From the IMG/VR virus record IMGVR_UViG_3300044695_003767: DNA of 64,000 bases; one strand, written 5' to 3'. Both the position numbers and the translations under genes were made by a program. Shown here in pieces: positions 5,574-54,300 of this stretch. The stretch's first letter is position 1. Each line of letters starts with the position of its first letter. The stretch comes from a virus. Below the pieces are notes generated by a model. That model ran no database searches and had not been told where the DNA came from. It saw only the letters and a program-made list of their open reading frames with translations.

Positions 5574-8500
5574 ATGCCTCTTAATAAGTTAGATAATTTT
5601 ATCAAGAATACTGAAGGTCGTATTCTTTATGTAAGTCCAAGTGATCTTGATTCAACAGACAGTATTGATAATCAGGGTAATTCTCTTGCCAGACCCTTTA
5701 AAACAGTTCAGAGAGCACTTTTAGAGGCTGCAAGATTTTCATATGTGAAGGGTGATGATAATGATATTACAGAAAAAACAACAATTTTACTTCTTCCTGG
5801 TGAGCACATAATTGATAATAGACCAGGTTTTAGACTTTACAATGATGCAGGGACTGCTAAAGTCGTATCACCAGATTCGAGTATTGGTGTAACAAATCCA
5901 ACTGCAACTGCAGCTTTAAGTTTATCACTTTCTTCTAATTTTGATTTAACTCAACTTGATAATATCCTATACAAGTTTAATAGTATTTACGGTGGTGTTA
6001 TCGTACCTAGAGGTGTATCGATAGTTGGTTTAGACCTTAGAAAGACAAAGATTCGTCCTAAGTATGTACCAAACCCAACAGACTCATCAGCATCTAAAAC
6101 TGCTATTTTTAGACTCACCGGTGCTTGTTACTTATGGCAGTTTTCTTTCTTTGATGCTAGAGAAAGTGAATTAGCATATACAAATCCAACAGATTTTACT
6201 GATACAGCAAAACCAACATTTTCCCACCACAAAGTAACGTGTTTTGAATATTGTGATGGTGTAAACAAATATGCTAATACTGGTCTTACAGACCTTGATA
6301 TGTATTATGCAAAATTATCTCACGCATATGGCACTAGTGCTGGTACGAGAGAAATTGATCAAAAATATCCAACTGATGCTGGTGGGTTTGCAAAACAACG
6401 TCCAGAATGGGAAATTGTTGGTGCTTTTGATAGTGATGTAATTCCTGTTTCTGCAATTAGTATTAGCTCTTCTGGTAGCAATTTAGTTACAGTCACAACA
6501 TCAGTTCCTCACGAATTTAATGAAGGAACTCCAATCAAGGTTAGAAATGTAATTCCAGTAGATTACAATATTTCCACAAAAGTTCAAACAGTTTTAAGTG
6601 ATACTAAATTTACTTATTTGATTCCTAATGCAAGACGAGATCTTGACTTAAATGGCAATGCTTCTTCTGCAACTGTAGTTATTGAAACTGATACTGTTTC
6701 TGGTGCTTCTCCTTATATCTTCAACATCTCTATGCGTTCTGTATGGGGTATGAACGGAATGCACGCTGATGGTGCAAAGGCTTCTGGTTTCCGTTCAATG
6801 GTTGTTGCCCAATTTACGGGTGTTTCTCTGCAAAAAGATGATCGTGCTTTTGTAAAATACTTCCAAGATTCTAGAAAGTATATTGGAATTGATGTAACTA
6901 AAGTAACAGGATCGGAATTATCTGGTCGATCTTCATCTACAGATCCTGGGACTGCATTCCACCTAGATCCTGCAGCAATTTACCGAAATGGTTGGGAGTC
7001 TTCTCACATTAAGGCATCGAATGATTCATTTATTCAGGTCGTATCTGTATTCGCAATTGGATTTACTAAACATTTTGATGGAGAATCTGGTGCAGACTAC
7101 AGTATTACAAACTCTAACTCTAACTTTGGACAAATTTCTCTAAATGGTGATGGTTTTAAAGCAGAAGCATTTGATAAAGATAATAATTTATTCCTGACAA
7201 ATATTGTTACACCCAAATCTATTGTAGGAACGCCAAAAACCGTTGACTGGATTTCACTTGATGTTGGAGTTACAACTACTGTCGGTGTATCAACTCGACT
7301 CTATCTGTTTGGATTTAAATCTCAAGATGATATTCCACCAGTTTTAACTCAAGGATATCGCATTGGTGGCGCAGTAAATGATAAGTTGTATGTGACAATA
7401 AACAATGTCGAATATTCGGCAGACATTGTGATGTCTGATGGAGTGACTAGTAGTGTAAAAGATTACACAGTATCAACTGTCAATAATAATAGATTTACAC
7501 TAAGTAGTGCTCATACTCTAGAGAATACAGAAAAAGTTACATTACAGAGTTTAAGTGGAGATCTTCCTGAAAATATTACCGAGCACACTGTTTATTATGC
7601 AATTACTTCTAGCATTAATGCTACTCGAACAGATGGTATAACGTTATCATCAACTCAGATTCAACTTGCAACTTCTCAGGCAGATGCAAGTCTTGGTATT
7701 CCCGTTACAATTTATGGTGGTAAAGATCTTAAACTTTTAAGTAGAGTTCACGATAAACAAGCTGGAGATATTGGGCATTCTGTTCAGTTTGATTCTACGA
7801 ATAAGCAATGGTTTATTACTGTAAAATCAACAAACAATACAATCTATAGTCAACTTGCTGCTTTAGGTGTCGGTGGATATCAAGCTAGAACTGATCCATC
7901 GTATATTAAGAGGATTCCAGATACAAGAAGTTTGGATGAAAAATTATATAAACTTAGAGTTGTCATTCCAAAAGAACTTTTGGGTGCAAAAGCTCCAGAA
8001 CCTGGATTTATTATTCAAGAGAGTAGTACAACTGGTGCAAGAAATGATTCCGATTTCCTTCTTCCAACTACCAGGAATCTAAATTATTTTGACTACAATT
8101 ATAGTAAAAATCCAAGATTAATTGCAAGTTGCTCAAGATCTACTGCAGTTAATGGAGTTTATACTGTAACAGTTGTAAGTGAAACCCCTCACGATCTCCA
8201 AGTTGGCAATAGCATTAAAATTTATAATGTAAAAGATTCTACTCTTAATCCATTTGGTGAATATGGATATGGGTATAATGGAAAGTTTTCCGTAAAATCT
8301 GTAGTAAACGATATGGCGTTTACTTATGATATTGTATCTGGAGTATCAACAAACGCAACATTCCCAACTACAAGAGGAACTTCTTGGCCAAGATTTGAGA
8401 AAAATGATGTAAAAAATAACTTTGTTGTTTATCGCAGTGTTGTTATTTCTGAATATGCGGAAGGTCAAAGAGATGGTGTTTATCATCTGTTTGTTATAAA

Positions 8501-11414
8501 TGCAGACAATAGAGTTGAAGAAGAGTTTACTTCAAGTGCATACACTCAAAATATTGTAGATCTTTATCCACAATTAGATAGAGACAATATCAATGATAAC
8601 CCTCCAGCTTCTAAATCTTATGCACTTAGAGCACCTCTGGGTAAAGTTATAACAAATGATTTAAAGCGTAGTCTTACAAGAGAAACCACAGATAAATTTG
8701 CTAGGACATTTGGGTTTGGTTTAGGAATTACCACTGTATCAACTGCATCAACTTCTGCAACATTAAGTTTTGATAGAAATCACGGATATGGTGGTATAAT
8801 TTCTGTTGGCATCTCATCTGGTGGAGTTGGATATTCAACTGGTACTTATTATAATGTTAAAATTTTACCAGATGGAACCATAACAAGTAATTGGCAAGGT
8901 GCTACTGCAACTGTTGTAGTTAATAGTAGTAGAAACGTATCTTCTGTTCAAATTACAAACCCTGGATCTGGATATGCATCAGGAACCTATCAATTAGATG
9001 AAAGTGTAATTGGAAACAACGGTGCTTCGACAAATGTATCATTGACTGTAACTTCTGGCGGCATTTCAACTTCAATTGGTCAAGTTGTGCAAGTCACTGG
9101 TATTGGTACAACATCTGATGGTTATTACAGAATTAGTGGAGTTCCTGCTCCAAATCAAATTTCAATCGCAAAAACTGCAGGAGATCCAACAGCAATAGTT
9201 GGACAATATGCATTCCTTGTTGGTCCATCGATCTCAATTTCCTCAATAGAATCAAATGCCACTCTTGGGATTACTACTTTCAATTGCTCTTCAGCACACG
9301 GATTAGTTGCTGGCAATAAATTTAGAGTCATTGACAGCAACAATAATAATCTTGGTGATTATTTGGTCAATTCAAGAGTTGGAGTTAACACATTTAATGT
9401 GGCATCTGCAGGTATCACCACAGCTGCATTTGTATTGAAGCACGGATTGGCATCAAATGATGGATCTTCTGATCAGGCATCAGAAAACTTAAGTACAAGA
9501 ACTAGTTTCATCTTTGATAAGGAAATTGCTTATGTTGTTGGATTTACTGATGATACAAAAATTAGAATCTCAGTTCCATCGTCTGGAGTAGGAACTGCAA
9601 ATAGATTCTACTATGGATCTTACATTCAAATTGATGATGAGATTATGAGAGTTGCAAGTAACACTCTCGGTGGAACATTCAATGATGAGATTACAGTTCT
9701 TCGTGGTGTTCTTGCTACAAGAAAAGTATCTCACGATGTTGGATCAATTATTAGAAGAATTTCTCCAGTTCCTTTAGAAATTCGTAGACCAACGACAATG
9801 AGAGCGTCTGGTCATACATTTGAATATCTTGGTTATGGTCCTGGAAACTATTCAACAGGTCTTCCTCAAGTACAAATTAGATCTCTGACGGAAAGAGAAG
9901 AGTTTCTTTCCCAATCTCAAGAAAAGAGTGGTGGTATTGTTGTTTACACTGGTATGAACAACAGAGGAGATTCTTTCCAAGGAAACTCCAAATCAACTGC
10001 AGCTAGTGGTCAAATTGTCACGTTTGACATTCCAACACCAACGATTACTGGTGAAAATACATCTAGATTGAGTGTTGTATTTGATGAAGTTACCGTTAAA
10101 GAAAGAATCGTTGTAGAAGGTGGTAGTTCAAATACTGTTCTTTCTCAGTTTGATGGACCATTAAATGTTAATGGTGAATCTAACTTTACTGCACCAGTTA
10201 TAGTTAGACATCTCTTTACTGTTAGAGATGAAACTGACTCTACTAGTGTTACTAATGGTGCTTTAATGGTTACCGGTGGTGCTGGTATTGCAAAGAATGT
10301 AACGATTGGTGGAACTTGTAGAGTTGTCAATACAATAGACTCCACATCTTCCACAACAGGATCTTTAATTATTTCTGGTGGAGTTGGTGTTGCAAAAACC
10401 ATTACAGTTGGTGGATCATTAAATATTAATGCTGGAATAGGGACTACTAGACTAAATTCATTAAGTGTTAGAGGAAGTAACAACTCATCTCCAATCGCAG
10501 CAAAGTCTGGTTCGCACGATACAGTTTGGTCTGTTTTACCTCATAGTGATGGAATTACTTACCTTTCTTCAGGAACATATTATGACAATGGATCTTGGAT
10601 TCACGCTTCACCTAATACAAATAGTTGTCTTCTTGGAATAACTGGTCTAACTGGAGCAAGATGGTATGCATCGGGAAATTCGTCTGCTACTTGGAACTTA
10701 GCAAGTGATGTTCAACTTTGGGATAATACTGGTGTTTGGAAAAATACTATTAACATTGGATCAAATACTGCTACCATAGGAACTTTAAATGTTACCAATA
10801 CAACTACTTTTAGTAGTACTGTAAACTTTACTTCTAATGCATCTTTTGCTGATAATGATGTATTAAATTTTGGTGATGGTAATGACTTACAAATTTTCCA
10901 TAATGGAAGCAATAGTTACATTGATGATGCCGGAACTGGTATTCTATACATAAGATCTAATCAAACTGAAATACAAAAATATACTGGAGAAACAATAGCT
11001 CAATTTGTATCAGATGGAGCAGTAAATCTCTACTATGATAACTCCAAGAAATTTGAAACTACAAATACAGGAGTAAGTATTAGTGGAGAAATAACTGCCA
11101 GTGGTGATATCACAGCATTCTTCACTTCTGACCAAAGATTGAAAGATAATATTGTTGCGATTGAAGATCCACTTGCAAAAGTACTTTCAATTAGTGGTAA
11201 CACTTATACTTGGAATGAAAAGTCTGGTAAAGAAGGAAATGATGTTGGTGTAATTGCTCAAGAAGTTCTTGAAGTTCTTCCAGAAGCAGTTACAACAAGA
11301 GATAATGGATATCTTGCGGTTCGATATGAAAAACTTGTCCCACTTCTTGTAGAAGCAATCAAAGAACTCTCACATAAAGTTGAAGTTCTCGAACAAAAAC
11401 TACAAGATAAATAA
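5574..11414 (+). CDS. Large tail fibre/structural protein with C-terminal S74 chaperone
   Basis: 1946 aa; cyanophage-type N-terminus MPLNKLDNFIKNTEGRILYV; C-terminal SDQRLKDNI...GVIAQEV...YEKLVPLLVEAIKEL. Confidence 0.85.
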   Translation: MPLNKLDNFIKNTEGRILYVSPSDLDSTDSIDNQGNSLARPFKTVQRALLEAARFSYVKGDDNDITEKTTILLLPGEHIIDNRPGFRLYNDAGTAKVVSPDSSIGVTNPTATAALSLSLSSNFDLTQLDNILYKFNSIYGGVIVPRGVSIVGLDLRKTKIRPKYVPNPTDSSASKTAIFRLTGACYLWQFSFFDARESELAYTNPTDFTDTAKPTFSHHKVTCFEYCDGVNKYANTGLTDLDMYYAKLSHAYGTSAGTREIDQKYPTDAGGFAKQRPEWEIVGAFDSDVIPVSAISISSSGSNLVTVTTSVPHEFNEGTPIKVRNVIPVDYNISTKVQTVLSDTKFTYLIPNARRDLDLNGNASSATVVIETDTVSGASPYIFNISMRSVWGMNGMHADGAKASGFRSMVVAQFTGVSLQKDDRAFVKYFQDSRKYIGIDVTKVTGSELSGRSSSTDPGTAFHLDPAAIYRNGWESSHIKASNDSFIQVVSVFAIGFTKHFDGESGADYSITNSNSNFGQISLNGDGFKAEAFDKDNNLFLTNIVTPKSIVGTPKTVDWISLDVGVTTTVGVSTRLYLFGFKSQDDIPPVLTQGYRIGGAVNDKLYVTINNVEYSADIVMSDGVTSSVKDYTVSTVNNNRFTLSSAHTLENTEKVTLQSLSGDLPENITEHTVYYAITSSINATRTDGITLSSTQIQLATSQADASLGIPVTIYGGKDLKLLSRVHDKQAGDIGHSVQFDSTNKQWFITVKSTNNTIYSQLAALGVGGYQARTDPSYIKRIPDTRSLDEKLYKLRVVIPKELLGAKAPEPGFIIQESSTTGARNDSDFLLPTTRNLNYFDYNYSKNPRLIASCSRSTAVNGVYTVTVVSETPHDLQVGNSIKIYNVKDSTLNPFGEYGYGYNGKFSVKSVVNDMAFTYDIVSGVSTNATFPTTRGTSWPRFEKNDVKNNFVVYRSVVISEYAEGQRDGVYHLFVINADNRVEEEFTSSAYTQNIVDLYPQLDRDNINDNPPASKSYALRAPLGKVITNDLKRSLTRETTDKFARTFGFGLGITTVSTASTSATLSFDRNHGYGGIISVGISSGGVGYSTGTYYNVKILPDGTITSNWQGATATVVVNSSRNVSSVQITNPGSGYASGTYQLDESVIGNNGASTNVSLTVTSGGISTSIGQVVQVTGIGTTSDGYYRISGVPAPNQISIAKTAGDPTAIVGQYAFLVGPSISISSIESNATLGITTFNCSSAHGLVAGNKFRVIDSNNNNLGDYLVNSRVGVNTFNVASAGITTAAFVLKHGLASNDGSSDQASENLSTRTSFIFDKEIAYVVGFTDDTKIRISVPSSGVGTANRFYYGSYIQIDDEIMRVASNTLGGTFNDEITVLRGVLATRKVSHDVGSIIRRISPVPLEIRRPTTMRASGHTFEYLGYGPGNYSTGLPQVQIRSLTEREEFLSQSQEKSGGIVVYTGMNNRGDSFQGNSKSTAASGQIVTFDIPTPTITGENTSRLSVVFDEVTVKERIVVEGGSSNTVLSQFDGPLNVNGESNFTAPVIVRHLFTVRDETDSTSVTNGALMVTGGAGIAKNVTIGGTCRVVNTIDSTSSTTGSLIISGGVGVAKTITVGGSLNINAGIGTTRLNSLSVRGSNNSSPIAAKSGSHDTVWSVLPHSDGITYLSSGTYYDNGSWIHASPNTNSCLLGITGLTGARWYASGNSSATWNLASDVQLWDNTGVWKNTINIGSNTATIGTLNVTNTTTFSSTVNFTSNASFADNDVLNFGDGNDLQIFHNGSNSYIDDAGTGILYIRSNQTEIQKYTGETIAQFVSDGAVNLYYDNSKKFETTNTGVSISGEITASGDITAFFTSDQRLKDNIVAIEDPLAKVLSISGNTYTWNEKSGKEGNDVGVIAQEVLEVLPEAVTTRDNGYLAVRYEKLVPLLVEAIKELSHKVEVLEQKLQDK

Positions 11415-11430
11415 TTAAAAAGCATATAAA

Positions 11431-14160
11431 ATGGCAAATTATAGGAAGTCATTTAACTTTAGAAGTGGAGTTCAGGTTGATAATGATCGATTTATTGTAG
11501 ATGGAAGAGGAAATGTTGGAGTAGGAACGTCTGCTCCAAATAGAATTCTTGATGTATATGGTACTGCGAGATTTGATGGAACAACAGAATTAAATAGGAT
11601 TCAAACCTCTGGAGTTTCCACATTTACGTCATTAGTAAACATTGGATCTAGTGTATTCTTAAATCCATCTACTGGGATTATATCGGCCTACTCTTATCGA
11701 GGTGATGGTAGACTTCTTGATGGTGTGATTGCTATCGCTACTGATGGTTGGAAAGTAAAGGCAGGAACTCTTTCTACAACTTTTAGTGTTTATGTCGGTC
11801 TTGGGTCTGATATTGCTCAGACAAGATTCCAAGTTGGATTAGGAACGTCAACGTTTGTTGTTACTGATAGTGGCACTATTGGAATTGGAACAATATCACC
11901 AGCATCAAAATTTCACGTGGTTGGTGATGCATTAATTTCTAATAGGTTAGTATCTTCAAATATTACTGTTGGTACTGGATTAAGTGTTTCTGGAATTTCT
12001 ACACTTGGAGTCACCACATTCACAGGTGCCGTAAGTTTTGGTTCTTCCATTTACTTTGGTGATAATGATGTATTAAATATTGGTGATAGTAATGATTTAC
12101 AAATTTATCATAGTGGATCTACTAGTTTTATTTTAGATAATGGAACTGGAAATCTTGCTTTAGGATCAAATGGAGATAGGGTTTCTATAGTAAAAGGAGA
12201 TGGAACAGAAACTCTTGCAAGATTTAATATAGACGATTCTGTTGAACTTTGGTTTAATAACGTAAAAGAATTTGAAACCACTGGATATGGTGCAACTGTT
12301 TATGGAGTTTTACAATCCGAAGGACTTCAATCTTCTGGAATTACTACATTAGCAGTTAATAGTTCTTCGGATGCATTAAGAATTACTCAACTTGGTTCTG
12401 GAAATGCCTTAGTTGTTGAAGATGAAACAAATCCCGATTCAACACCTTTTGTAGTTACTGGTATTGGAAGTGTTGGTATAGGAAAAGCAAGTCCCGTAGC
12501 AAAACTTGATGTTGTAGGAGATGCAAGAATTTCTAATTCTGTTCTTGCATCTACTTTTATTGGTGATTTAACAGGAACAGCAACAAATGCAACAAACCTT
12601 TCAGATGGTGCAAATATTACTACGGGCACAATTAATGATGCGAGATTGCCAGATATAATTACATCAAACCTATCAGCATCCACAGGAATTTCTACAGTTA
12701 CTAAACTTAGATCTGAAAGTATTGGAATTGGAACCGATACTTTTACTTCAGATTTAGCAATCATAAAGGATGCCTCAGTTTCTCTTGAATTAATTTCTAG
12801 AACGGGAAATACAACAATAGGTCTTGGTTCAGAAACTATAGGTAATAATAACACAGCAAGAATTAAATATACACCACTCAGTCAAGTTTTAGATTTTGAA
12901 AATTATGGATCTGGAGAAGTTAATTTCCACGTTCATAAGGGAACTGGTGCAGTAGTTGGTACTCAAACTGGAGGATTTTATTTTAAAACTGGTTCTGTCA
13001 GTAGGACCTTGATGAATTTGGCTTATGATGGAAGAGTCTCAATAAATGAAGAAGTTCCTTTATTGACTGATTTAGGTTACCGATTGATGGTCAATGGCAA
13101 CACCAAAATTAGAGGAAGATTAGATTTAGATCAAGGAATAACTGCTGGTATTGTAACTGTTTCCAGTTTAAACAGTGTGAGTCCATCTACATTCCCAACA
13201 ACTCAAAACTTTAACACTCAATCTGGAATATCAACATTTAATCAGTTTAGAGTTACAAATCTATTAAATGTAACTGGTGTAAGTTCTTTTGCGGGAATTA
13301 CAACGTTCCTTAGTGGAGTTTCAATTGGTAGTTCCACTGTAGGTACAAATAGCCCATTAAACATTTATTCGACAGCAACATTAACAAATTCTACTCTTGG
13401 ACTGTCTACATCAAAAATTTATTATGATTATGTGGGAGGAATAACGACAGGATTCTCAGATCCAAGAAATCAAACAAAATTAAGTGGACTTATTGCGGAT
13501 CCAAATAAGAAAATTTCTGCGTTTGGTTATGGTGATTATCAAGTAAGAACCGGTGGATTGAGTATTATTTGTCAAGATTATATTAATATACATCCATCCA
13601 TTGCCATTACTACTGCAGGTAATTGGGAAGGATTGACTGTAGCAGAAAATAGTGATATGGGTCTAAGATATTCAAATGGTAGTAATTTACCAATGATTGG
13701 TATTAATACTATATTTGCAAGATCAATTGTTGATGTTGGTTATGCAGTAACTTCAATGAATAGTTACTTTATACCACCAAGATTAACGACCACAGAACTT
13801 TATTTTGTAAGTCAATTGTGGAATCCTGCAGTTGCTGGTCCTTCAGCAGGTAACTGGTTTAATCATTTGAGAGCAAATTCTTCTACTCCAAATGGTGTTG
13901 TAAGTGGTGCAATTGTTTTTGATACAACTGCATCACAACTTAAGGTTGGTATTGGAAGCACGACTTTTGTTGGTATTGCAACATTTACAAATAATCATAG
14001 TGGATTTAGTGCATTTATTCCACCTAGGATGAGTACCACTGAAAGAAATACAATGACAAATGCTGGTATTTCTAGTGGAGCAATCATTTATAATTCCACA
14101 ACAGATAGATTGGAAGTCAGGTTAAAAGGTTCCTGGTTTGGTATTACAACTGCAGTCTAA
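11431..14160 (+). CDS. Tail fibre-like structural protein
   Basis: 909 aa; VGIGT..P...LDV.G repeats; PPRMSTTER...GAIIYNST..LEV C-terminus. Confidence 0.8.
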   Translation: MANYRKSFNFRSGVQVDNDRFIVDGRGNVGVGTSAPNRILDVYGTARFDGTTELNRIQTSGVSTFTSLVNIGSSVFLNPSTGIISAYSYRGDGRLLDGVIAIATDGWKVKAGTLSTTFSVYVGLGSDIAQTRFQVGLGTSTFVVTDSGTIGIGTISPASKFHVVGDALISNRLVSSNITVGTGLSVSGISTLGVTTFTGAVSFGSSIYFGDNDVLNIGDSNDLQIYHSGSTSFILDNGTGNLALGSNGDRVSIVKGDGTETLARFNIDDSVELWFNNVKEFETTGYGATVYGVLQSEGLQSSGITTLAVNSSSDALRITQLGSGNALVVEDETNPDSTPFVVTGIGSVGIGKASPVAKLDVVGDARISNSVLASTFIGDLTGTATNATNLSDGANITTGTINDARLPDIITSNLSASTGISTVTKLRSESIGIGTDTFTSDLAIIKDASVSLELISRTGNTTIGLGSETIGNNNTARIKYTPLSQVLDFENYGSGEVNFHVHKGTGAVVGTQTGGFYFKTGSVSRTLMNLAYDGRVSINEEVPLLTDLGYRLMVNGNTKIRGRLDLDQGITAGIVTVSSLNSVSPSTFPTTQNFNTQSGISTFNQFRVTNLLNVTGVSSFAGITTFLSGVSIGSSTVGTNSPLNIYSTATLTNSTLGLSTSKIYYDYVGGITTGFSDPRNQTKLSGLIADPNKKISAFGYGDYQVRTGGLSIICQDYINIHPSIAITTAGNWEGLTVAENSDMGLRYSNGSNLPMIGINTIFARSIVDVGYAVTSMNSYFIPPRLTTTELYFVSQLWNPAVAGPSAGNWFNHLRANSSTPNGVVSGAIVFDTTASQLKVGIGSTTFVGIATFTNNHSGFSAFIPPRMSTTERNTMTNAGISSGAIIYNSTTDRLEVRLKGSWFGITTAV

Positions 14161-14163
14161 TAC

Positions 14164-14192
14164 TTGACATAATCCTCAAATACCACTAGACT
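14164..14192 (+). promoter_or_regulatory. Sigma70-type promoter
   Basis: TTGACA-17-TAGACT. A second, palindrome-type promoter follows at 14222-14279. Confidence 0.65.
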
Positions 14193-14292
14193 ACCTTTGT
14201 CTGGGTTGGAGATGAGGCTCTAGGCCACTTTAAGAACCGTCACAGGACCCCTCACAGGGTCCTGTTTTTGCTGTATAATATTCCTATATTCA

Positions 14293-16701: not shown

Positions 16702-17197
16702 TAGAATTATCAGTCAATACACTGACATATTTGATGAAACCCAGGTAAATAATATTTGGGAATACTTAACTAAACCAAATTGGGGATTTTGGCAGTCTAG
16801 TAGACCAGACTCTAAAAATTTTTTCTGGTATATGAATCTTGATGATCATTCCTTTTTCACTCAAGAATTATTTTCTAAAATTAAAACTTTAATTGGTGAA
16901 GATTTTTTTATTGAAAAAGTCTATGCGAATGGTCAAACTTTCGGATTAGATGGGGAATTTCATATTGATGACCCAGATGATAATGCATATACTTTTCTTT
17001 ATTACCCTATGAGAGATTGGAATTTATCTTGGGGTGGTGAAACAGTCATTCTTGATCCTGAAGGTGTGATAAGCACTATACATCCGATGCCAAATAGTGC
17101 TATAATATTCCCATCAAATTGGTTACACTGTGGTAAATCACCATCTAAAAACTTCACAGATTTGAGAGTCACCATTGCTTATAAATTGAAAAAATGA
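16694..17197 (+). CDS. 2OG-Fe(II) oxygenase
   Basis: YANGQT...FHIDD...WGGET...FPS..LH...R.TIAYK; probable GTG start at 16694. Confidence 0.85.
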   Translation: MTDRIISQYTDIFDETQVNNIWEYLTKPNWGFWQSSRPDSKNFFWYMNLDDHSFFTQELFSKIKTLIGEDFFIEKVYANGQTFGLDGEFHIDDPDDNAYTFLYYPMRDWNLSWGGETVILDPEGVISTIHPMPNSAIIFPSNWLHCGKSPSKNFTDLRVTIAYKLKK

Positions 17198-26889: not shown

Positions 26890-27234
26890 ATGAGATTTGA
26901 AAACCCAACAAAATGGGAACTTTTCCTTGATGGATTTCGTAATGTCCTGTATATTCTTGACTGTTATGATGACGGTGATGAATGGGGTTATGGTGAGTTC
27001 TGGGAATCGTTGAGTATTGGATGGATGCAGATGGAAATTTATCCTTATGATGACCCCTACAACCTAACTATCAGTCCAGAACGTAGGTTGAGATTAGGAC
27101 AAGAACCAGAAAGGATTATTGTATCCGCAGAAGCATATGATGAACTTGTGCGACGAATCAATGAACCACAAGACCCTGCTGTGGTGGAAAGAATTAAAGA
27201 ACTTATGAGTCGCAAAGCACCGTGGGATGATTGA
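26890..27234 (+). CDS. Hypothetical protein
   Basis: MRFENPTKW...; C-terminus I.VSAEAYDELV.RI.EP...APW. Confidence 0.6.
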   Translation: MRFENPTKWELFLDGFRNVLYILDCYDDGDEWGYGEFWESLSIGWMQMEIYPYDDPYNLTISPERRLRLGQEPERIIVSAEAYDELVRRINEPQDPAVVERIKELMSRKAPWDD

Positions 27235-27839
27235 TTATGACACTCATAACATATCCATTTCATTATCTCTATTTTGAGAATTTTTATTCCCAAGAAGAAT
27301 TGGATTTAATATGGGAAGAATTGAATAGTTTATATGTTGAAGGTGATAAATTTTTATCACCAGATGATACTCATAGTGCCAAAGATGATAATGGAAATTA
27401 TATAAAAGCAAATAGAGGTTTATGGTTAGAGGATAAATCATCCAATCTTTTTAATATCACAAAAAAATTATATGATCCAACCATAATAAATCATCCATCA
27501 TCTTGGTTTTTTAAAGACACTAATTTTAATAAGGATGTGACACTCATATCATATTATGATGACGATGATTATTATGCTAAGCATAATGATTCATCCTACA
27601 TTACTGCTTGTACTTGGTTATATAAAGAACCAAAGCAATTTTTGGGTGGAGAGTTTTGGTTCCCTGATTATGATATAAAAGTTCCCTGTAAAAATAATTC
27701 CTGTATTATATTCCCGTCAAACATCTGGCATTCGGTTAAAAAAGTTTATCTACCAGATGAATATAAAAATAAAGGATATGGTAGGTATTGTATAAGTCAA
27801 TTTGTATCTGTAAATATTGGTAAAGATGTCTCTCAGTGA
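27231..27839 (+). CDS. 2OG-Fe(II) oxygenase
   Basis: LISYY...Y..HND...F.GGE..F...FPS..WH.V...GRYCISQF. Confidence 0.85.
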   Translation: MIMTLITYPFHYLYFENFYSQEELDLIWEELNSLYVEGDKFLSPDDTHSAKDDNGNYIKANRGLWLEDKSSNLFNITKKLYDPTIINHPSSWFFKDTNFNKDVTLISYYDDDDYYAKHNDSSYITACTWLYKEPKQFLGGEFWFPDYDIKVPCKNNSCIIFPSNIWHSVKKVYLPDEYKNKGYGRYCISQFVSVNIGKDVSQ

Positions 27840-30307: not shown

Positions 30308-30458
30308 CTCCCTAAAAATAACACAAAATGAGGATGGATCCTTCACAATGGACTGGGACAAGGAAGACCCAAATTGGAAGTGGCTCAATGGGTTGACTTC
30401 TAAGGAAATTCAGGTTATTATGCAACAAGCAATCGAGGATTATCTCAATGACCTCTGA
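30276..30458 (+). CDS. Hypothetical protein
   Basis: N.DGSFT.DWD..DP.W..LN. Confidence 0.65.
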   Translation: MNAQNQNPGNDSLKITQNEDGSFTMDWDKEDPNWKWLNGLTSKEIQVIMQQAIEDYLNDL

Positions 30459-31047
30459 CTTTGATTATAAAAAGTATTCTCTTGAAAAACTTGAAACTTG
30501 GGTAAGAGATTCTCTGACTAGTGCAGAAGCAAGCCCACAAGAAATATACAATACCATTAAGGGTGTTGTAGATGAAGAATATCATTACTTCAAGCATTAT
30601 ACTGGTCGTTGCTATGAACTTCTTGCTCTTCTGAATGGTAATGGTAAGGGTCATATTACAGCATACGATGAATATGTTGAGAAAAAAGAAAATCTTGTAT
30701 GTGATAAGGAAGATCCATCACCCGAATGTAAAAACTCTTGGACTTCCTTCTGGGAAGAGTATTTTTACCCAGAAGAAGTAAAGGATGATGGTATGCATCC
30801 TTGGGGGCATAGTGATTTGGAATATCAAGGTTCAACTGTGAGTAGTGTAAAACAAGATAAAGTGAAGAAGTGGGTTCTTCCCGTTGAAGTAAGTGATGAT
30901 TTAGAAGATTATATTGTATCTTTCCCTGATGATCTTTTGGAAGCAGCAAATCTTAAAGAAGGAGATCAAGTGGAGTGGGCAGATCAGGGCGATGGGTCTT
31001 ATCTTCTCCGTAAGGTAATACAACCACTGGGAATGGATGACTGTTAA
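30448..31047 (+). CDS. Protein with C-terminal AbrB/MazE-like domain
   Basis: YIVSFPDDLLEAANLKEGDQVEW...DGSYLLRK. Confidence 0.65.
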   Translation: MTSDFDYKKYSLEKLETWVRDSLTSAEASPQEIYNTIKGVVDEEYHYFKHYTGRCYELLALLNGNGKGHITAYDEYVEKKENLVCDKEDPSPECKNSWTSFWEEYFYPEEVKDDGMHPWGHSDLEYQGSTVSSVKQDKVKKWVLPVEVSDDLEDYIVSFPDDLLEAANLKEGDQVEWADQGDGSYLLRKVIQPLGMDDC

Positions 31048-34112: not shown

Positions 34113-34589
34113 ATGTCTTACTTTGAAATGTCTGGATATGGTTACTCTAAACGTACCTGTCAGGATGTTACCACTTGGTTTCTGAATAAGTTCCTTCCAC
34201 GCCATAAGATTGAGGTGGAGATTCGTCACCGTGGTCTGCGTCGTGAACAAGTTTATGGTTACTGTGATTATGTGGGAGAATCTTATCGTCCTCGTGAGTT
34301 TTTGATTGAACTCAACACCTATATGTGTGAGGAGTTGTATATAAAAACTCTTTTACACGAACTGGTCCACCTGCGGCAGTGGGTAGTCGGTTCACTGCGG
34401 GTCCGTCGTGGAAAAATGTGTTATGGTAAACAATGTGTTGAAGATTATGAGTATTGGTATCAGCCCCACGAAATAGAGGCACGGGAGCAAGAAGAAACCC
34501 TATATCTTGAGTACCTAATTGAGAAGCAAGGTGTGCCAGATCCCAAAGTGGCACAGTTCTTCCCGAACCGCCTGCTGCAGGCAGTATAA
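34113..34589 (+). CDS. SprT-like zinc metallopeptidase
   Basis: TLLHELVH..Q...Y..QPHEIEA. Confidence 0.7.
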   Translation: MSYFEMSGYGYSKRTCQDVTTWFLNKFLPRHKIEVEIRHRGLRREQVYGYCDYVGESYRPREFLIELNTYMCEELYIKTLLHELVHLRQWVVGSLRVRRGKMCYGKQCVEDYEYWYQPHEIEAREQEETLYLEYLIEKQGVPDPKVAQFFPNRLLQAV

Positions 34590-37588: not shown

Positions 37589-37730
37589 CAGAGAAGCAGA
37601 CCACGTTGCTCATATACGGACTGTTATATTTCTCACTTATCTCATTACTAATCTTTTTATTGTTGCAGGGGTCGTAAGACATTGGAACGACATTGAGTAT
37701 CAACAACCCGTGAATCATGGACAAATATAG
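37521..37730 (+). CDS. Small membrane protein
   Basis: WRLWAK..GEK...EAD.VA.IRT...TN.FIVAGV.RHW. Confidence 0.7.
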   Translation: MKKKKTLWRLWAKSIGEKASKNDREADHVAHIRTVIFLTYLITNLFIVAGVVRHWNDIEYQQPVNHGQI

Positions 37731-38334
37731 AAAAATAATCTTTCCGACTTACATTTATCAATATAGTCTTCGGGAGAAGAATCAAGTTCTAAAAGAACTT
37801 CTTCTTCCGAAGATTTTGCAGTATCAAAAAGATTTTAAATTGAATCCACCGCAAGGATGGACAACGGATAAAGTTTACACAACATTTGAGCAGAATGAAT
37901 TAAACTATAAGTTATTCATTCAGTCTTCAGAAGTTCGTCAAAACTATGAAAAGCATTTCTCTCAAGTCTTTGGAAAGGGAACACAATTTGAGTTTACTGG
38001 TGCCTGGTTCAATTACTATACCAATGGTGAATATCAGGAAGAACACGATCATATGGGTGATTCATTCAATGTACCAGATGCACATTTTTCTGCAATTCAT
38101 TTTTTACAGTTTGATCCAAAACGTCACGCACCAGTCACATTCATTGATTCATTGAGTAAGTTAAATCGAAGATACAATAATTTCTATGTCTATAATCCTA
38201 GAATTGCAGAAGGTGATTTAATCATTTTTCCATCACATTTGAGTCACCGTGTGAAACCATCACAACCAACACCTGATTATCCAAGAGTGACGATTGCTTT
38301 TAACCTTCATATTCAGACGATTCATGCAAATTAA
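37717..38334 (+). CDS. Putative 2OG-Fe(II) oxygenase
   Basis: WFNYY..GEYQE.HDH...FSAIHFL...EGDLIIFPS.L.H.V...RVTIAFN. Confidence 0.85.
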   Translation: MDKYRKIIFPTYIYQYSLREKNQVLKELLLPKILQYQKDFKLNPPQGWTTDKVYTTFEQNELNYKLFIQSSEVRQNYEKHFSQVFGKGTQFEFTGAWFNYYTNGEYQEEHDHMGDSFNVPDAHFSAIHFLQFDPKRHAPVTFIDSLSKLNRRYNNFYVYNPRIAEGDLIIFPSHLSHRVKPSQPTPDYPRVTIAFNLHIQTIHAN

Positions 38335-38803
38335 TTTTATCGATAACTTCTTAACAAAATCAGAACATCAGAGAGTTTATCAATACTGTCTGAGTGCTTC
38401 CTATCGTTATGGTGAACAGGACAATCCACAGACTCCGACGACTGGAATGGTTCATAACATATCTGGAAATGAGTTTGTCTATAAGGTCTTAAATCGAAAG
38501 ATTCTAGAAACATTTGATTTTCTTGGTCCACTCAAACTGTATCGAATGTATGTGAATTGTTTTGCCCCTGGTGAACGATCCTATTTTCATATTGATCACA
38601 ATACTGGATATACCTTGTTGTATTATCCACATTTAGAATGGAGTTTGAATGATGGTGGTGAAACACAATTTTACCTGGAAGAAAGTATTCAAGGAATTTG
38701 TGCCGTTCCCAATCGACTTGCAATATTTGATGCATCATTATTACATCGTGCGACACCATTTTATCATTCACATCGATTCACGATCGCAATCAAATACAGG
38801 TAA
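38324..38803 (+). CDS. 2OG-Fe(II) oxygenase
   Basis: R.YVNCF..GE...FHID...GGETQF...FD..LLH.AT...RFTIAIKY. Confidence 0.85.
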   Translation: MQINFIDNFLTKSEHQRVYQYCLSASYRYGEQDNPQTPTTGMVHNISGNEFVYKVLNRKILETFDFLGPLKLYRMYVNCFAPGERSYFHIDHNTGYTLLYYPHLEWSLNDGGETQFYLEESIQGICAVPNRLAIFDASLLHRATPFYHSHRFTIAIKYR

Positions 38804-38844
38804 GAGTCTAAATATCTAAAAATAGACTTCTATTTCTCTTTGAA

Positions 38845-40113
38845 ATGCCAGTTAATACAACACAGACAAAGTATTTTCAGAATATTGGACCAAGTGCAGA
38901 TTCTCTGAGTTTCAGTACAATTGCCTCTACATTAGGAAACTCTTCGACGAACATTCGATTTGGTGATTATCGAAGAAAGACAAGTGCAAATGAAGTATTT
39001 GTCGATGTAAGTGCCAGTGCAGAACAAAAACTTGCACAGACTGGTATTGTACCTGATTCAATTGAAAATCAGACTTGTGGTGTCGATGGAAACGGAATTA
39101 CGACACTGAACGATCATAAGATTTCCAGTCTGAAGAATATGATCAAACGTTATGATGTATCCTATACTGGAAACACATCCAGTCAAATTGACATTAGCCC
39201 TGGTGGTGGAACGATTGCAGATAACTGGGCAACAAATATTGATTTGAATGTACCAAAAAGAGTCACCTTTGATAGTTCGACACTAAAGGCAAGTACAACA
39301 TCAGAACACGCTGTCGTGTTTAGTGGTTCGGCACTAAATTTAGATCTAACGTTCAATGCCACACAGGTTCTGGGAAGAGAAGGAGTTGGTGGAACAAAGG
39401 CAACTGCCAATACATCTGCGACTGGTGGTGGTGCTGGTGGTGGTGCATTGTATCTGAGAAATACGACATCCAGAACATCTGGAAATGCGTCTACAATTAA
39501 TCTAACTCTCAACAATACTGCACTGATTGCTGGTGGTGGAGGCGGTGGAGGTGGTGGTGCCACAGGAACAGTTAGTGGTACGACTCAATGCACCAATTAC
39601 AATGATTATTCTTATAATAACAATTATTGGGCTTATCTTTACGGTGGATGTCCAGTTGCTTGTGATAGTGGTGATACTCAATTAGCCTGTAATTATAGCA
39701 ATGATATTCGATATTTCCGTGGTACGGGTGGATTTTCTCAGGGTACTTGGTATTCCTATCCCTGGACAGTCACGTGCCGTAAGTTTATCACCACCGACAA
39801 TGGTGCAGTTGCAGCAGCATCTGGTGGAGATGGTGGTGTTGGTCAAGGATCAAACAATGCCAATGCAGGTGTTGGAGGTAATGCAAGTGGTGCAGCATCA
39901 CTAAATTGCCCTGGTGGTACTTATGCCCAGAATGCAACATCGAATACGACTGCTGGTGTTGCTGGTGGAGATGGTGGAACCTATGGTCTTCCTGGTGGAA
40001 ATACAAATGTAGCCAATGGTGGATCTGCTGGTCCTTGGTTGAATGTATCTAATACACGATGGGCAAACAGAGGTGCATCAGGAGCACTTGTACAAAGAGT
40101 CAATACTATTTGA
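38845..40113 (+). CDS. Glycine-rich gp38-like adhesin/tail-tip protein
   Basis: GREG.GG...GGAGGGALY...L.N...IAGGGGGGGGG...GGDGG.G.G...GGDGG..G..GG...GG.AG polyglycine pattern; late promoter TAAATA at 38809. Confidence 0.6.
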   Translation: MPVNTTQTKYFQNIGPSADSLSFSTIASTLGNSSTNIRFGDYRRKTSANEVFVDVSASAEQKLAQTGIVPDSIENQTCGVDGNGITTLNDHKISSLKNMIKRYDVSYTGNTSSQIDISPGGGTIADNWATNIDLNVPKRVTFDSSTLKASTTSEHAVVFSGSALNLDLTFNATQVLGREGVGGTKATANTSATGGGAGGGALYLRNTTSRTSGNASTINLTLNNTALIAGGGGGGGGGATGTVSGTTQCTNYNDYSYNNNYWAYLYGGCPVACDSGDTQLACNYSNDIRYFRGTGGFSQGTWYSYPWTVTCRKFITTDNGAVAAASGGDGGVGQGSNNANAGVGGNASGAASLNCPGGTYAQNATSNTTAGVAGGDGGTYGLPGGNTNVANGGSAGPWLNVSNTRWANRGASGALVQRVNTI

Positions 40114-40138
40114 CATTTAATTCGATTGTTGATAGAAT
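40110..40138 (+). promoter_or_regulatory. Sigma70-type promoter
   Basis: TTGACA-17-TAGAAT overlapping the adhesin stop codon. Confidence 0.7.
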
Positions 40139-40157
40139 AGAAAAAAACTGATGTCAT

Positions 40158-40475
40158 ATGAAACTGTCTGAATTTATTTTTCATATTGTCTGTGAAATGA
40201 ATGATGCTCGATTCGCATTTCCAGTCAAGGTCAAAGAAGAAAAGGAAAGACTGGCACATTGCCTGAGTTGTGATCATTATGATGCCGAATCTCAGATGTG
40301 TGGATTGTGCAATTGTTATGTGCCAAACAAGGTAAAGCACTTGTATGAGTTCTGTCCTCTCGAAAAATGGGATCGAAGTTCCGAAACCTGGAATGATACG
40401 TATTGTAATCTGTTTGCCGAAAAAGTCATTGAAAAGTACCCTGATGCAGAAGAATGGAAGAATCAATTAAACTAA
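40158..40475 (+). CDS. Cys-rich protein (DUF6171-like)
   Basis: R..CLSC...MCGLCNC...K...CPLEKW. Confidence 0.7.
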   Translation: MKLSEFIFHIVCEMNDARFAFPVKVKEEKERLAHCLSCDHYDAESQMCGLCNCYVPNKVKHLYEFCPLEKWDRSSETWNDTYCNLFAEKVIEKYPDAEEWKNQLN

Positions 40476-41053
40476 AAGGAACGTATGAAGACTTTATTGG
40501 AACATACGAAAACATTCTAGATTTCAATCTCTGTGATGAGATCATAGGTGCATTTGATTATTATCACGATATGGATGCCGTCTTCTGTGAAGATGGACAA
40601 TTTGAGAATTCCAATGCAGGACGATTCGATTGGGCAATTGATCTATCAGAACTTGGATCAACAATGAAACCGACTCATCCTCAACAGATTGTGAATAATG
40701 TACTGAAAGAATGTCTAGATGAGTATATGACTGTCTTTGGTCATCTTAAACCATTGGTTCTTTATTCGATTAATCAGAAGGTACAAAAGACTCCTGCTGG
40801 TGGTGGTTATCACGTCTGGCACGATGAGAATACTTCTATTCAACATTCATCTAGAGTTGCTGTTTGGATGTTTTATTTGAATGATGACTTTGAAGGAGGA
40901 GAGACTGAGTTTCTGTATTATAAGAAGAGAATCAATCCATCGAAAGGAACATTGTTAATTTGGCCTGCTGGATTAACACATTGTCATCGTGGTGGATTAG
41001 TTCTGAAAGGTACAAAGTATGTTGTAACGGGATGGTTCTATGTCGGACAATAA
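40454..41053 (+). CDS. 2OG-Fe(II) oxygenase (prolyl-4-hydroxylase-like)
   Basis: KVQKT..GGGYHVWHDE...YLND.FEGGETEF...WPA..TH.HRG...KY..TGW. Confidence 0.9.
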   Translation: MEESIKLKGTYEDFIGTYENILDFNLCDEIIGAFDYYHDMDAVFCEDGQFENSNAGRFDWAIDLSELGSTMKPTHPQQIVNNVLKECLDEYMTVFGHLKPLVLYSINQKVQKTPAGGGYHVWHDENTSIQHSSRVAVWMFYLNDDFEGGETEFLYYKKRINPSKGTLLIWPAGLTHCHRGGLVLKGTKYVVTGWFYVGQ

Positions 41054-41312
41054 AGAAGAGAAAGAGTTTCCATCATTAATCGAACAAGGAAAGAATCTGG
41101 CACAGTTCACGTTTGAGGTTGTTAAGGATGTTGTTGTGCCAAATACTGAACATCAGATCTATGCTAGTAATGAGGTTAAGAAGCAAAGGTTAGATACTTG
41201 TAAGACTTGCGAATATTATCATCAACAACAGAATCGTTGTAGGCACTGTGGTTGTTGGTTAGAACATAAGACTAAGTTCATTGTTGCAGAGTGTCCGATT
41301 GGAAAATGGTAG
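41040..41312 (+). CDS. Cys-rich protein (DUF6171-like)
   Basis: R..TCKTC...RCRHCGC...K...CPIGKW. Confidence 0.75.
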   Translation: MSDNKEEKEFPSLIEQGKNLAQFTFEVVKDVVVPNTEHQIYASNEVKKQRLDTCKTCEYYHQQQNRCRHCGCWLEHKTKFIVAECPIGKW

Positions 41313-41445
41313 CGAATAATACTAAAATAAGTTAAATTTAATTAAAAAAGGTATTAAAAAACTAATATGTTCTTTCTATAACATTCTCAATAAGGTGTAA
41401 TTAATTGAGAATCAATAGTGTATTATAGTTGAGAATAAGTCTTAT

Positions 41446-41587
41446 ACTTGTATTTTATAAGTGTGATAAAACCTTATAAATGCCTCTGAGACTTGTGTTC
41501 ATAAAGTCTTTTAAATGTTTATAAATGCCTCTGAGACTTGTATTTTATAAGTGTGATAAAACCTTATAAATGCCTCTGAGACTTGTG
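41446..41587. repeat. 45-bp-period direct repeats with 23-bp core TTATAAATGCCTCTGAGACTTGT (3 copies)
   Basis: Cores at 41474, 41519 and 41564; 41446-41497 is identical to 41536-41587. Confidence 0.95.
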
Positions 41588-41601
41588 AGTTTAGTCCGCG
41601 C

Positions 41602-41631
41602 ATTATAACACACGAGACCCCGAAATGTCAA
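41602..41631 (-). promoter_or_regulatory. Leftward sigma70 consensus promoter
   Basis: Minus strand TTGACA-18-TATAAT. Confidence 0.65.
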
Positions 41632-41666
41632 CCCCCCACGAGATTTGCTACGAGACCCACACATAT

Positions 41667-41924
41667 CTCGACGAGAATTATAATCATATCTTAACATTTC
41701 TCGACGAGAATACATATATATCATTATGAGACTCGACGAGATTGTGCATCATAAGGGCTTGCAAACTCGTCGAGATCGTGCTACACTATAACAGTCATCA
41801 ATCATTCTCGACGAGCATTATGTACGACGACTACGATCTCGACTACTCTTTCAGTAACGATTACAATCTCGACGAGGACTCATACTACGAGCATTATGTG
41901 CAAGGTGATGCGAACCTCGACGAG
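41667..41924. repeat. Seven CTCGWCGAG palindromes
   Basis: At 41667, 41700, 41732, 41766, 41807, 41868 and 41916. Confidence 0.9.
41759..41787 (+). promoter_or_regulatory. Rightward promoter with a palindrome in the spacer
   Basis: TTGCAA-17-TACACT; CTCGTCGAG between the boxes. Confidence 0.55.
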
Positions 41925-51385: not shown

Positions 51386-54300
51386 ATGATACAAACGGGA
51401 TTTGATTCAAGAGTTAAAATTACTGATGTTATTGACAACCAGCTTCCAAGTTTTGTTTTGGATGAAAATCCAAAACTATCTGATTTTTTAAAGCAATATT
51501 ATATTTCTCAAGAATATCAAGGTGGACCTGTTGATATATCTGAGAATTTAGATCAGTATTTAAAAATTAATAATATTATATCTGAATCAATTTCTGATAG
51601 AGAAGTATACTTAACATCGAATATAGGAACTGATAATAAAATTACAATTAGTGTAAATACAACAAAAGGATTTCCAGAAAAATATGGATTGTTAAAAATA
51701 AATGATGAAATTATTACCTATACTGGAATAACTACAAATTCATTCTTAAATTGTCAAAGGGGATTCAGTGGAATAACTGGATATCATCAAGATTTAAATG
51801 AAGAAGAACTAGTTTTTGAAAAAACTAATGTTCAATCACATCAAGAATTTTCTTCAGTTAAAAATTTAAGTTCCTTATTCCTAAAAGAATTTTATAAAAA
51901 AATAAAATATACTTTTGCTCCAGGATTTGAAGAACTTGATTTTGATCCAAGATTAAATGCAGGTAATTTTATCAAATCTATTCGTTCTTTTTATCAATCT
52001 AAAGGAACAGATGAGTCTTTTAAAATATTATTTAAAGTTTTATATAATGTAGAAGCAACGGTTGTAAATTTAGAAAACTTTTTGATTAAACCATCTTCTG
52101 CAGAATATGTTAGAAGAGAAGTTATTTTAGTTGATCCAATCTCTGGAGAACCAAATAACTTAGTTGGTCAGGAAATAAAAAAGGAAAATGATTTAACAAC
52201 TTTTGCATCTGTATCTGAAGTTGAAATTATTACAAGAAATTTTAAAACATATTATAAATTATCCCTTTTTGTTGGATACGATGAATCATCAACTATTCAA
52301 GGAAAATTTATTGTTACACCTAAATCTAAGTGTATTGAAACAATTGCAGTAGGTTCTTCCACAATTTCAGTAGATTCGACCATCGGATTTCCAGAATCTG
52401 GAACTTTAATTTCTGGAAATAATGAAAGTATCACATATTCTAGTAAATCCATTAATCAATTTTTTGGTTGTGCTGGAATTATTGATGAAATTTCGTATGG
52501 ATCAGATATACGTAGTGATGATGTTTATTTTGGATATGAAAATGGAGATGTTTCTAAAAAAGTTAGATTTAGTATACTAGGTTCTTTATCTAAATTTGAA
52601 CAAATCTCAGACGTTTTAAACGGTGTTGCAGAAGGTGACGATATTAATATTAAGAGTCTTGGAAGTCCCATTGATAGAACTAGATTTTCAAATAAAACAT
52701 TTAAAGAAATTTTTGCAAATTCTTGGATATACAATTCAAACTCAAGATTTTATATAGAAAATTTTAATGGACCAAAAACATTAAACTTAAAATCACCAAT
52801 TTTAAAAGATGATCTAACAAGTTTTAAACATGGTGACGCAGTAGAAATTGTTGAAAGAGGAACTAATAATGTTGTTTTCACTTCACACATTGAGGAAAGA
52901 ATAGGAGATAATTCAAAATCAATTAAATTATTGGGTTCTTTTACTCCTGTTGGTAATACAGAATATGATTTAAGACGTAAAGTTAATAAAGCAAGCAGCC
53001 TATATGCGACAATTAAAGGTGGAAATGATAATATTATATCTGATGTAAGTAATTTATATACAAATACTGATAATGCATATGTAGCATCAAATTCACTTCC
53101 ATCAAGTAATAGAGGACTGTCAATTCCATATAATTATCAGATAACCAAAAAACTAGATAGTTTCAATATTACTAATACTAGTGGAACATTAGAAAATCAA
53201 ATAGACATAGACTATAGCGTCATTTCTTTTGAAAATTCAACTTCATTTATTACAGGAGATAAAATATTTTATCAACCAGAATCAGATAATCTTGTAGGAC
53301 TTGATACTGGATATTATTACGTTCAAATTGTATCTGCCGATAATAAAAAAATAAAGTTATACTCATCACCATCTTTTATAGGAAGTTCAAGTTATTTAAC
53401 TTTTAGATCACCATATATTTCTGGAATAGGAACACACAGATTTACTCTTGCAACACAAAAGTCTGCAATTATTGGAGCACAAAAATTATTAAAAAAATTC
53501 CCACTTTCAAAAGATAGAAATACTCAAACAAATTTAAGTTCTAGTAAAGAAATTTTACCAGGACCTATTGGTTTGCTAATCAATGGTGTAGAAATAGATA
53601 GTTATAAATCAACGGATAAAATTTATTACGGACCTTTAAAATCAGTTGATGTTTTAAATGGTGGCAATAATTACGATGTTATAAATTTACCAAAAATTGT
53701 AGTTTCTGCTGGATTTGGTCAGACTGCTTTAATACAACCTGTTATTAGTGGTTCTCTCAATAAAATATATGTAGAAAACCAAGAATTTGATATTGAAAAA
53801 ATACTATCAATTGGAGTTAATGGTGGAAATGGTAAAGGTGCTGTTTTAGAACCCACTTTAAACTTAAGGGTAAGAGAAGTTCTTTTTGATGGTAGGGCAA
53901 CAACAATTGGTGGTGGTATCAATACTACAACAGGACAATTGACATTTGATGCTGATCATTATTTTAATGATGGTGAAGAAATCTTTTACAATGCTAATGG
54001 AAATAATGGTATAGGTGTTGGTATTGGAACATCAACATTGATTGATAAAGCATCATATTATCCAAAAAGCACAAGCCCACGTACAGTTTTATTATATCCA
54101 TCTTTTAATGACTACTCTACGGGTATTAATACAATAAGATTTAATACTGACAATAATTTTGGTGTACATAAATTTTATACAAAATCAGATAAAAAAACTT
54201 TAACAGATATCAAGGTAATTAATGGTGGAGAAGGATATACTAATAGAAAATTAATTGTTAAACCATCTGGAATATCTACTACTACACATACTATAAATTT

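Follow-up and report, generated by a model that had tools for sequence, protein, structure and literature searches.

Why a glycine-rich protein of 422 amino acids (aa) is encoded among three 2-oxoglutarate (2OG)-Fe(II) oxygenases and two paralogous DUF6171 proteins is the question raised by the locus at positions 37717-41312 of a 64,000-nucleotide (nt) stretch of viral DNA (IMG/VR virus record IMGVR_UViG_3300044695_003767), the whole of which is called the window here. The six genes are tightly packed on the same strand in the order ox1, ox2, adhesin, cxxcA, ox3, and cxxcB, and both this order and the gene identities, as proposed in an earlier note on the window, agreed with Pfam and PHROG matches. 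The earlier note suggested that the whole locus may be a mobile host-range module in which the enzymes and the small CxxC proteins fold or modify a gp38-like adhesin. Judged from the related loci compared below, conservation extends not to all six genes but to a cassette of two, the adhesin and the DUF6171 gene downstream of it. The explanation favoured here, with moderate confidence, is that a gp38-type adhesin is accompanied by a dedicated partner, cxxcA, aiding its Cys cluster, and that the pair was relocated once to a position between oxygenases.

Going by its predicted fold, the glycine protein (38845..40113, plus strand) is genuinely homologous in structure to the gp38 adhesin of the T-even/S16 type and thus a putative monomeric tail-fibre tip adhesin. 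The AlphaFold2 (AF2) model, built on an alignment of metagenomic homologues, had a mean predicted local distance difference test (pLDDT) score of 73.6, most of residues 100-410 exceeding 80 and the N-terminal 100 being poorly predicted. In VIA-align, the model matched S16 gp38 (6f45_D) with Z 17.3 over 210 aligned residues of the 248-residue chain at a root mean square deviation (rmsd) of 5.2 and PP01 gp38 (9v85_A) with Z 16.9 over 189 residues at an rmsd of 2.9, against Z 6.1 for the next unrelated match. Foldseek concurred, its top three matches being gp38 and its significant matches limited to the two solved gp38 adhesins, so that the likeness to gp38, first proposed from a motif, extends to the predicted fold.

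By their published definition (PMC12032242, citing Dunne 2018), gp38 adhesins combine an attachment domain and a beta-helix with a polyglycine II sandwich, in which variable loops accompany conserved glycine motifs. A three-domain fold with a polyglycine type II sandwich was predicted for the glycine protein, and in a 30-sequence alignment of the adhesin the glycine blocks were invariant and the intervening segments were the least conserved columns. The variable segments are not all short beta-turn loops, as one of them is a hairpin insert of ~70 residues with conserved Cys. By hmmscan against Pfam, no match was found at E ≤ 0.1 and PF05268 was not reached, so that assignment to the gp38 group depends on predicted fold and motif architecture; the protein database lists a precomputed PF05268 match for the adhesin and 13 relatives. 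No match was obtained in a PDB sequence-profile search, nor by tblastn of 50,697 phage records with either the full-length adhesin or its first 200 aa, and a protein database search returned ~30 homologues in metagenomes, none of them named.

The insert (aa 249-318; 39589..39798, plus strand) is a Cys-, Tyr-, and Trp-rich segment between glycine blocks in which the adhesin varies most, with long beta hairpins predicted at E248-262, E278-284, and E302-318. The six Cys residues quoted earlier from the translation are present (C249, C269, C273, C283, C311, and C355), and C249, C269, C273, and C355 were invariant in 23 of 23 DUF6171-linked adhesins. With the gp38 of T2/T6/S16/PP01-type Straboviridae (PF05268; PDB 6F45 and 9V85) the protein shares the predicted attachment part, beta-helix, and polyglycine II sandwich, and in sister cyanophage lineages its gene likewise comes after the long fibre genes. 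It differs in having only ~20% identity, in its length (422 versus ~250 aa, 170 residues longer), in the expansion of a four-residue turn to the ~70-aa hairpin insert with the invariant Cys set, and in the position of its gene 24 kb from the fibres. It also differs from enterobacterial phage gp38 in its obligate DUF6171 neighbour, no Escherichia or Salmonella phage being found among 75 DUF6171-bearing records.

A member of the same family is ORF53 (open reading frame 53) of the freshwater Synechococcus phage S-SRM01 (QPX48018.1; profile E 1.6e-32), whose insert is likewise Cys-rich and whose gene is followed after 20-30 nt by a DUF6171 gene. It differs from the window adhesin in lying within the fibre module, with a flavin-dependent halogenase upstream instead of oxygenases. 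On the basis of an HHpred hit to PF05268, the protein carries the label 'gp37-gp38 adhesin tip complex' (Table 2 in PMC8557907); that paper gives the hit only in the table and discusses neither the DUF6171 partner nor the halogenase.

The neighbourhood of the adhesin was analyzed in a census of 28 distinct gp38-like genes with readable context from IMG/VR, metagenomes, phage S-SRM01, and two further records, with Pfam and PHROGs used to verify what each enzyme is; 34 new IMG/VR contigs came from a search with a degenerate DNA pattern for a motif in the N-terminal domain. In the commonest layout (type I), which includes the cultured S-SRM01, the order was fibre (~1800 aa), fibre2 (~600 aa), an enzyme of the Trp-halogenase family (PF04820, E 1e-84), adhesin, DUF6171, and helicase. 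Type II resembled type I without the halogenase (locus G005) or with an ox1-type oxygenase after DUF6171 (loci L154, L169, and L170). Type III comprised adhesin-like genes without DUF6171 (L164, L173, and L176), followed in L176 by an ox3-type oxygenase. Type IV, the layout of the window, consisted of ox1, ox2, adhesin, DUF6171, and ox3, usually followed by a second DUF6171 gene.

Every Cys-cluster adhesin of the census had a DUF6171 gene within the next two genes, in L167 as a degenerate copy, and the gap between the two genes was 4-28 nt in the fibre-module lineages, which fits co-transcription. The other neighbours of the pair varied among helicase, ox1-type, ox2-type, ox3-type, and halogenase genes. 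The earlier note had proposed a check for co-occurrence of DUF6171, gp38-like, and 2OG oxygenase genes; beside Cys-cluster adhesins DUF6171 was constant and oxidative enzymes recurred, and most DUF6171 loci had no gp38-like gene.

The two small proteins, rightly taken for paralogs (phmmer E 7e-9), have the common pattern R-x3-CxxC-x9-CxxCxC-x4-K-x7-CP-x3-W, which was invariant in 47 homologues, its six Cys also in a 15-homologue alignment. The product of cxxcB (41040..41312, plus strand; 90 aa) is near the generic DUF6171 type, with 33.6 bits to PF19668 (cut-off 27), 42% identity to the S-SRM01 copy, and matches in 75 phage records. The product of cxxcA (40158..40475, plus strand; 105 aa; phrog_13558, E 4e-12) scored 19.1 bits, below the same cut-off, but shares its PHROG with cxxcB, and represents an adhesin-linked subfamily in which the Cys6 core is followed by a helical C-terminal extension. 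Its AF2 model had a pLDDT of 87, and a weak zinc-ribbon resemblance to bL32 was the only hint from its sequence. An Atlas search with DUF6171 returned DUF6171 clusters only, and the family is not mentioned in the literature found.

In the DUF6171 tree, all 19 distinct adhesin-adjacent copies fell into one group, which contained cxxcA (Shimodaira-Hasegawa-like approximate likelihood ratio test [SH-aLRT] 91) and divided in two in the same way as the adhesin tree. Most generic copies lay outside this group, and the cxxcB copies of the window's subclade were sister to it. The C-terminal extension was common to the adjacent copies of the window clade and S-SRM01 and was missing from the other aligned copies. 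The cxxcA and adhesin products diverged at similar fast rates, with respective identities of 71 and 69% to L007 and 48 and 54% to L014, and ox3 much more slowly (87 and 70%). Partner-bearing adhesins had 6-13 Cys residues C-terminal to the first glycine run, compared to 1, 4, and 2 in the partner-less L164, L173, and L176. This loss of the partner along with the conserved Cys supports a folding or metal-loading role of the DUF6171 partner and, more than any other result, suggests that the Cys cluster is what the small protein serves. Of the two CxxC proteins that the earlier note had tied to the adhesin, the tie holds for the cxxcA type, by adjacency, tree group, and joint loss with the Cys residues, and is not supported for cxxcB.

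The adhesin gene lies 23.5 kb from the fibre genes of the window, in agreement with the ~25 kb given before, and is therefore not directly 3' of the distal long fibre gene, as it is in S-SRM01, G005, and many IMG/VR contigs. The two long fibre genes (5574..14160, plus strand; 1946 and 909 aa; phrog_3269 tail protein) are the probable carriers of the adhesin, with 53-54% identity to the fibre genes directly 5' of the adhesin in S-SRM01/G004 and G005. They are contiguous with a gene for a 411-aa helicase homologue (14293-15528; 63% identity), and only 132 nt (14161..14292) remain where G004/S-SRM01 and G005 carry the adhesin and DUF6171 genes. The presence of the pair at this site in the sister lineages and its absence from the contiguous fibre, fibre2, and helicase genes of the window indicate that the pair left the fibre module. 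In the adhesin tree, the oxygenase-flanked type IV loci formed one clade (support 95/93) with long, deep internal branches, and the relocation therefore occurred once and was retained since. A separate observation concerns the C-terminal 115 aa of the 1946-aa fibre (residues 1832-1946; gene at 5574-11414), which were 75-83% identical to S-SRM01/G005, compared to ~53% in the remainder, and which are a candidate docking site for the adhesin.

Under the favoured explanation, a gp38-type monomeric adhesin would cap the long tail fibre and read the host surface via the large Cys/Tyr/Trp-rich insert protruding from the polyglycine sandwich. The cxxcA product, a dedicated six-Cys member of DUF6171 and probably a small zinc-binding protein, would help the Cys cluster of the adhesin to fold or to gain its metal or disulfide state, as a chaperone or metal-loading factor. 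In the ancestral layout the pair would stand behind the long fibre genes, just as T-even phages have g38 after g37; in the lineage of the window it moved once, 24 kb away, and was from then on inherited between three apparently catalytically intact oxygenases and a second, near-generic DUF6171 gene. In being a small protein that is encoded beside a fibre tip gene and may aid folding, cxxcA can be likened to the fibre assembly chaperones T4 gp57A/gp38 and Mu/lambda Tfa. It has no sequence or fold similarity to them; it is a Cys6 protein of metal type, most of whose family is not linked to fibres.

Several results weigh against this explanation. A structural search with the cxxcA model found no relative (best Z 3.7) and so offered no fold-based function, and the DUF6171 tree, with ~100 columns, was of modest resolution. 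A gp38-like adhesin was present in just 2 of 118 sampled IMG/VR loci with the DUF6171 motif, 9 of 10 isolated phages with DUF6171 have no adhesin of the window's family, and the generic type occurred in more than 100 phage contigs without a gp38-like gene, among them phages of Stenotrophomonas, Xanthomonas, and Rhizobium, in which small early genes surround it. The cxxcA gene has its own conserved sigma70-type, that is early, promoter motif, unlike a late structural gene. The pairing could persist merely since genes 20-50 nt apart rarely separate, and the joint loss of Cys and partner rests on two or three events. In S-SCSM2R (L023, 37757-38035), a phage without a gp38-like gene of the window's family, a DUF6171 gene lies two genes after the long tail fibre gene, which may point to a more general tie between the family and the fibre/helicase junction.

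The promoter motifs bear on the timing of the two genes. The sigma70-like promoter proposed earlier is real as a motif (TTGACA-17-TAGAAT; 40110..40138, plus strand), matching at 11 of 12 positions with a TG preceding the -10 element; it overlaps the adhesin stop codon and stands 5' of cxxcA-ox3-cxxcB. Its hexamers were kept in L007 and L015 and its extended -10 element in L014/L010, while the remaining spacer diverged. The late promoter proposed for the adhesin was found in part: a candidate T4-type core, CTAAATA, is read at 38808..38814 (plus strand), 38 nt 5' of the start codon, and is plausible, but it is not TATAAATA. The near-identical ACTAAATA stands at -40 of the 1946-aa fibre gene (5574), a comparable distance, and ATAAATA occurs at -25/-28 of three other structural genes. 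On account of these upstream motifs of the adhesin and fibre genes and of the conserved sigma70-type motif before cxxcA, it is plausible that the adhesin is expressed late and cxxcA-ox3-cxxcB early.

A further reading assigns the flanking enzymes a part: the adhesin insert would be hydroxylated by the 2OG oxygenases and, in sister lineages, halogenated by the Trp-halogenase homologue, with DUF6171 as adaptor or chaperone. The ox1 gene (37717..38334, plus strand) encodes a 205-aa oxygenase of the PF13759 type (E 8e-10; phrog_81, E 4e-34). The ox2 gene (38324..38803, plus strand) encodes a ~159-aa oxygenase of the phrog_274/DUF6445-like type (PF13640, 27.6 bits, E 6e-6; phrog_274, E 4e-28) and overlaps the 3' end of ox1 by 11 nt; its start is likely ATG 38324 and not the listed TTG 38294, because homologues align only from residue ~8-13. 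The ox3 gene (40454..41053, plus strand), overlapping cxxcA by 22 nt and cxxcB by 14 nt, encodes a prolyl-4-hydroxylase-like oxygenase of 199 aa (PF13640, E 9e-12; phrog_61, E 1e-43). All three combine the match to PF13759 or PF13640 with the iron triad and basic 2OG residue of the 2OG-Fe(II) superfamily, namely, H110, H112, H177, and R190 in ox1 (HxH...H and R; 9 orthologues), H99-x-D101, H151, and R161 in ox2 (numbered from TTG 38294; 10 orthologues), and H123, E125, H176/H178, and K188 in ox3 (9-10 orthologues). Since these residues were invariant across diverged orthologues, the enzymes are probably active, a point in favour of this reading. The nearest solved relatives of ox3 are, at weak E-values (E 4e-4), the prolyl hydroxylases of Bacillus anthracis and PBCV-1 and the collagen lysyl hydroxylase LH3, that is protein hydroxylases and not nucleic-acid oxidases; ox1 and ox2 gave no informative relative among solved structures.

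The recurrence of oxidative enzymes beside the pair was observed in at least four different arrangements and speaks for modification of the adhesin. The halogenase is directly upstream in most fibre-module lineages, ox2-like genes occur beside the pair in L153, L174, L175, L177, and L182, and ox1-type genes in L154/169/170 and L182, so that with the ox3-type gene of L176 each oxygenase type recurs beside an adhesin outside type IV; all three are present in the window clade. A DUF6171 gene followed immediately by an ox3-type gene was also found in S-SSM7, in Sf-FS3, and in five of the 118 IMG/VR loci, but this arrangement occurs in phages without a gp38-like gene. The 2OG oxygenases make up ~5-7% of genes in marine cyanomyoviruses, with 10-22 genes each, often in runs, in S-SSM7, Sf-FS3, S-SCSM2R, and Syn10; the freshwater S-SRM01 has 2-3. 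Five are present in the window, the further two at 16655-17197 and 27231-27839 (PF13640, 28.9 and 24.4 bits). Chance adjacency is therefore common, and adjacency alone is weak evidence. Moreover, no enzyme stands next to the adhesin in G005 and L164, and the fibre/helicase junction may be a mere insertion hot spot, as Dam methylases sit there too.

The classical prolyl-hydroxylase motif is X-Pro-Gly, and conserved sites of this kind were considered as the target of ox3. They found no support, as such sites are not conserved in the adhesins of the window clade and are missing from those of L014, L160, and L180. In L176 (1381-3081) and L165 (4637-6131), a long glycine-rich, collagen-like protein with 28-29 T/Q-Pro-Gly triplets occupies the adhesin slot; that of L176 has 29 X-Pro-Gly triplets and, directly after it, the ox3-type gene (PF13640, prolyl-hydroxylase type), an arrangement in favour of modification. 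In Syn10 (L187, HQ634191.1, 108695-124077), an annotated tryptophan halogenase gene, whose product we take to be VirX1, lies ~4.6 kb behind the gene for a 1317-aa fibre and is followed within 10 kb by ~7 2OG oxygenase genes; no gp38-like gene of the window's family was detectable in this genome. The cyanophage tryptophan-halogenase homologues (prnA; VirX1 of Syn10) belong to the same enzyme family as the gene directly 5' of the adhesin in the sister lineages and are absent from the window. According to a 2010 review, the function of the phage tryptophan halogenase is unknown and the sole proposal speculative (PMC2984593), and a halogenase review leaves the natural-product field of its table empty for VirX1, the Syn10 enzyme (PMC8407142).

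Taken together, modification of the adhesin by the oxygenases is somewhat unlikely, and the full system with DUF6171 as adaptor or chaperone is unlikely. The wider claim that cyanomyoviruses tailor their own tip by 2OG hydroxylation, in sister lineages by halogenation of the Cys/Tyr/Trp insert, and with DUF6171 as folding or metal chaperone is more doubtful still.

Also unlikely is the reading that the neighbours are unrelated, with the adhesin alone structural, the oxygenases encoded by auxiliary metabolic genes, and DUF6171 supplying small early zinc-ribbon proteins for regulation or host takeover, all brought together by accessory-gene accumulation at the junction and inherited synteny. It would fit the early-type promoter motif of cxxcA, the early DUF6171 genes of non-cyanophage myoviruses, the resemblance to bL32, the arrangement in S-SCSM2R, and the gene-poor stretch that the locus abuts; it leaves unexplained the grouping of the adjacent DUF6171 copies with their common C-terminal extension, the staying together of the pair through relocation, and the loss of conserved Cys in partner-less adhesins. 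The mobile module of the earlier note is contradicted by the single type IV clade, which makes the arrangement old, and by the contigs from IMG/VR and metagenomes whose adhesins are 54-100% identical, all of which keep the six-gene order and the small genes on both flanks, with neither variable presence at a syntenic site nor differing flanks. Such shared order is ordinary synteny and in itself gives no information on mobility; together with the clade it led to rejection of a mobile island, and the comparison of loci indicates that the oxygenase-flanked layout arose once, was stably inherited, and is not currently mobile.

The differing codon style of the locus was partly borne out, and a foreign origin did not follow from it. 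CGA made up 31% of Arg codons in the six genes, against shares of 6% for the large ORFs and 18% for small ORFs nearby, and ACG 20% compared to 7-8% elsewhere, all from small counts; as the neighbouring small genes are intermediate, a foreign origin was rejected. By megablast, phage DSL-LC02 was the only match, with one small ORF common to both.

Directly 3' of cxxcB, the gene-poor stretch at 41313-41740 contains three direct copies of a ~23-nt unit ending TTATAAATGCCTCTGAGACTTGT and, on the minus strand, a perfect TTGACA-18-TATAAT (41631-41602). Elsewhere in the window, an ORF of at least 4204 codons (51386-64000) runs off the end and has 26-31% G+C, compared to 34-45% in the rest. Two mid-size ORFs at 30448-31047 and 34113-34589 gave weak, sub-cut-off Pfam matches to a MazE-antitoxin-like C-terminus and a SprT-like metalloprotease domain.

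The novelty lies in a variant of the gp38-type adhesin that has a Cys-cluster insert and an obligate DUF6171 partner and is repeatedly surrounded by oxidative enzymes. The receptor-binding proteins of cyanomyoviruses are poorly defined, yet they set the host range of viruses controlling major primary producers, and here a family of gp38-type tip adhesins is identified in marine and freshwater members, where it comes with an obligate small Cys protein. Oxygenases and halogenases, enzyme classes without an agreed role in cyanophages, cluster around this adhesin. As the relative S-SRM01 is in culture, both the role of the partner and any modification of the adhesin are directly testable. If the tailoring were true, a natural substrate would be found for two enzyme families that are abundant in cyanophages and have lacked an established function ever since the first genomes, and the locus suggests, rather than proves, that T4-like viruses of cyanobacteria fold and chemically tailor their host-binding tip.

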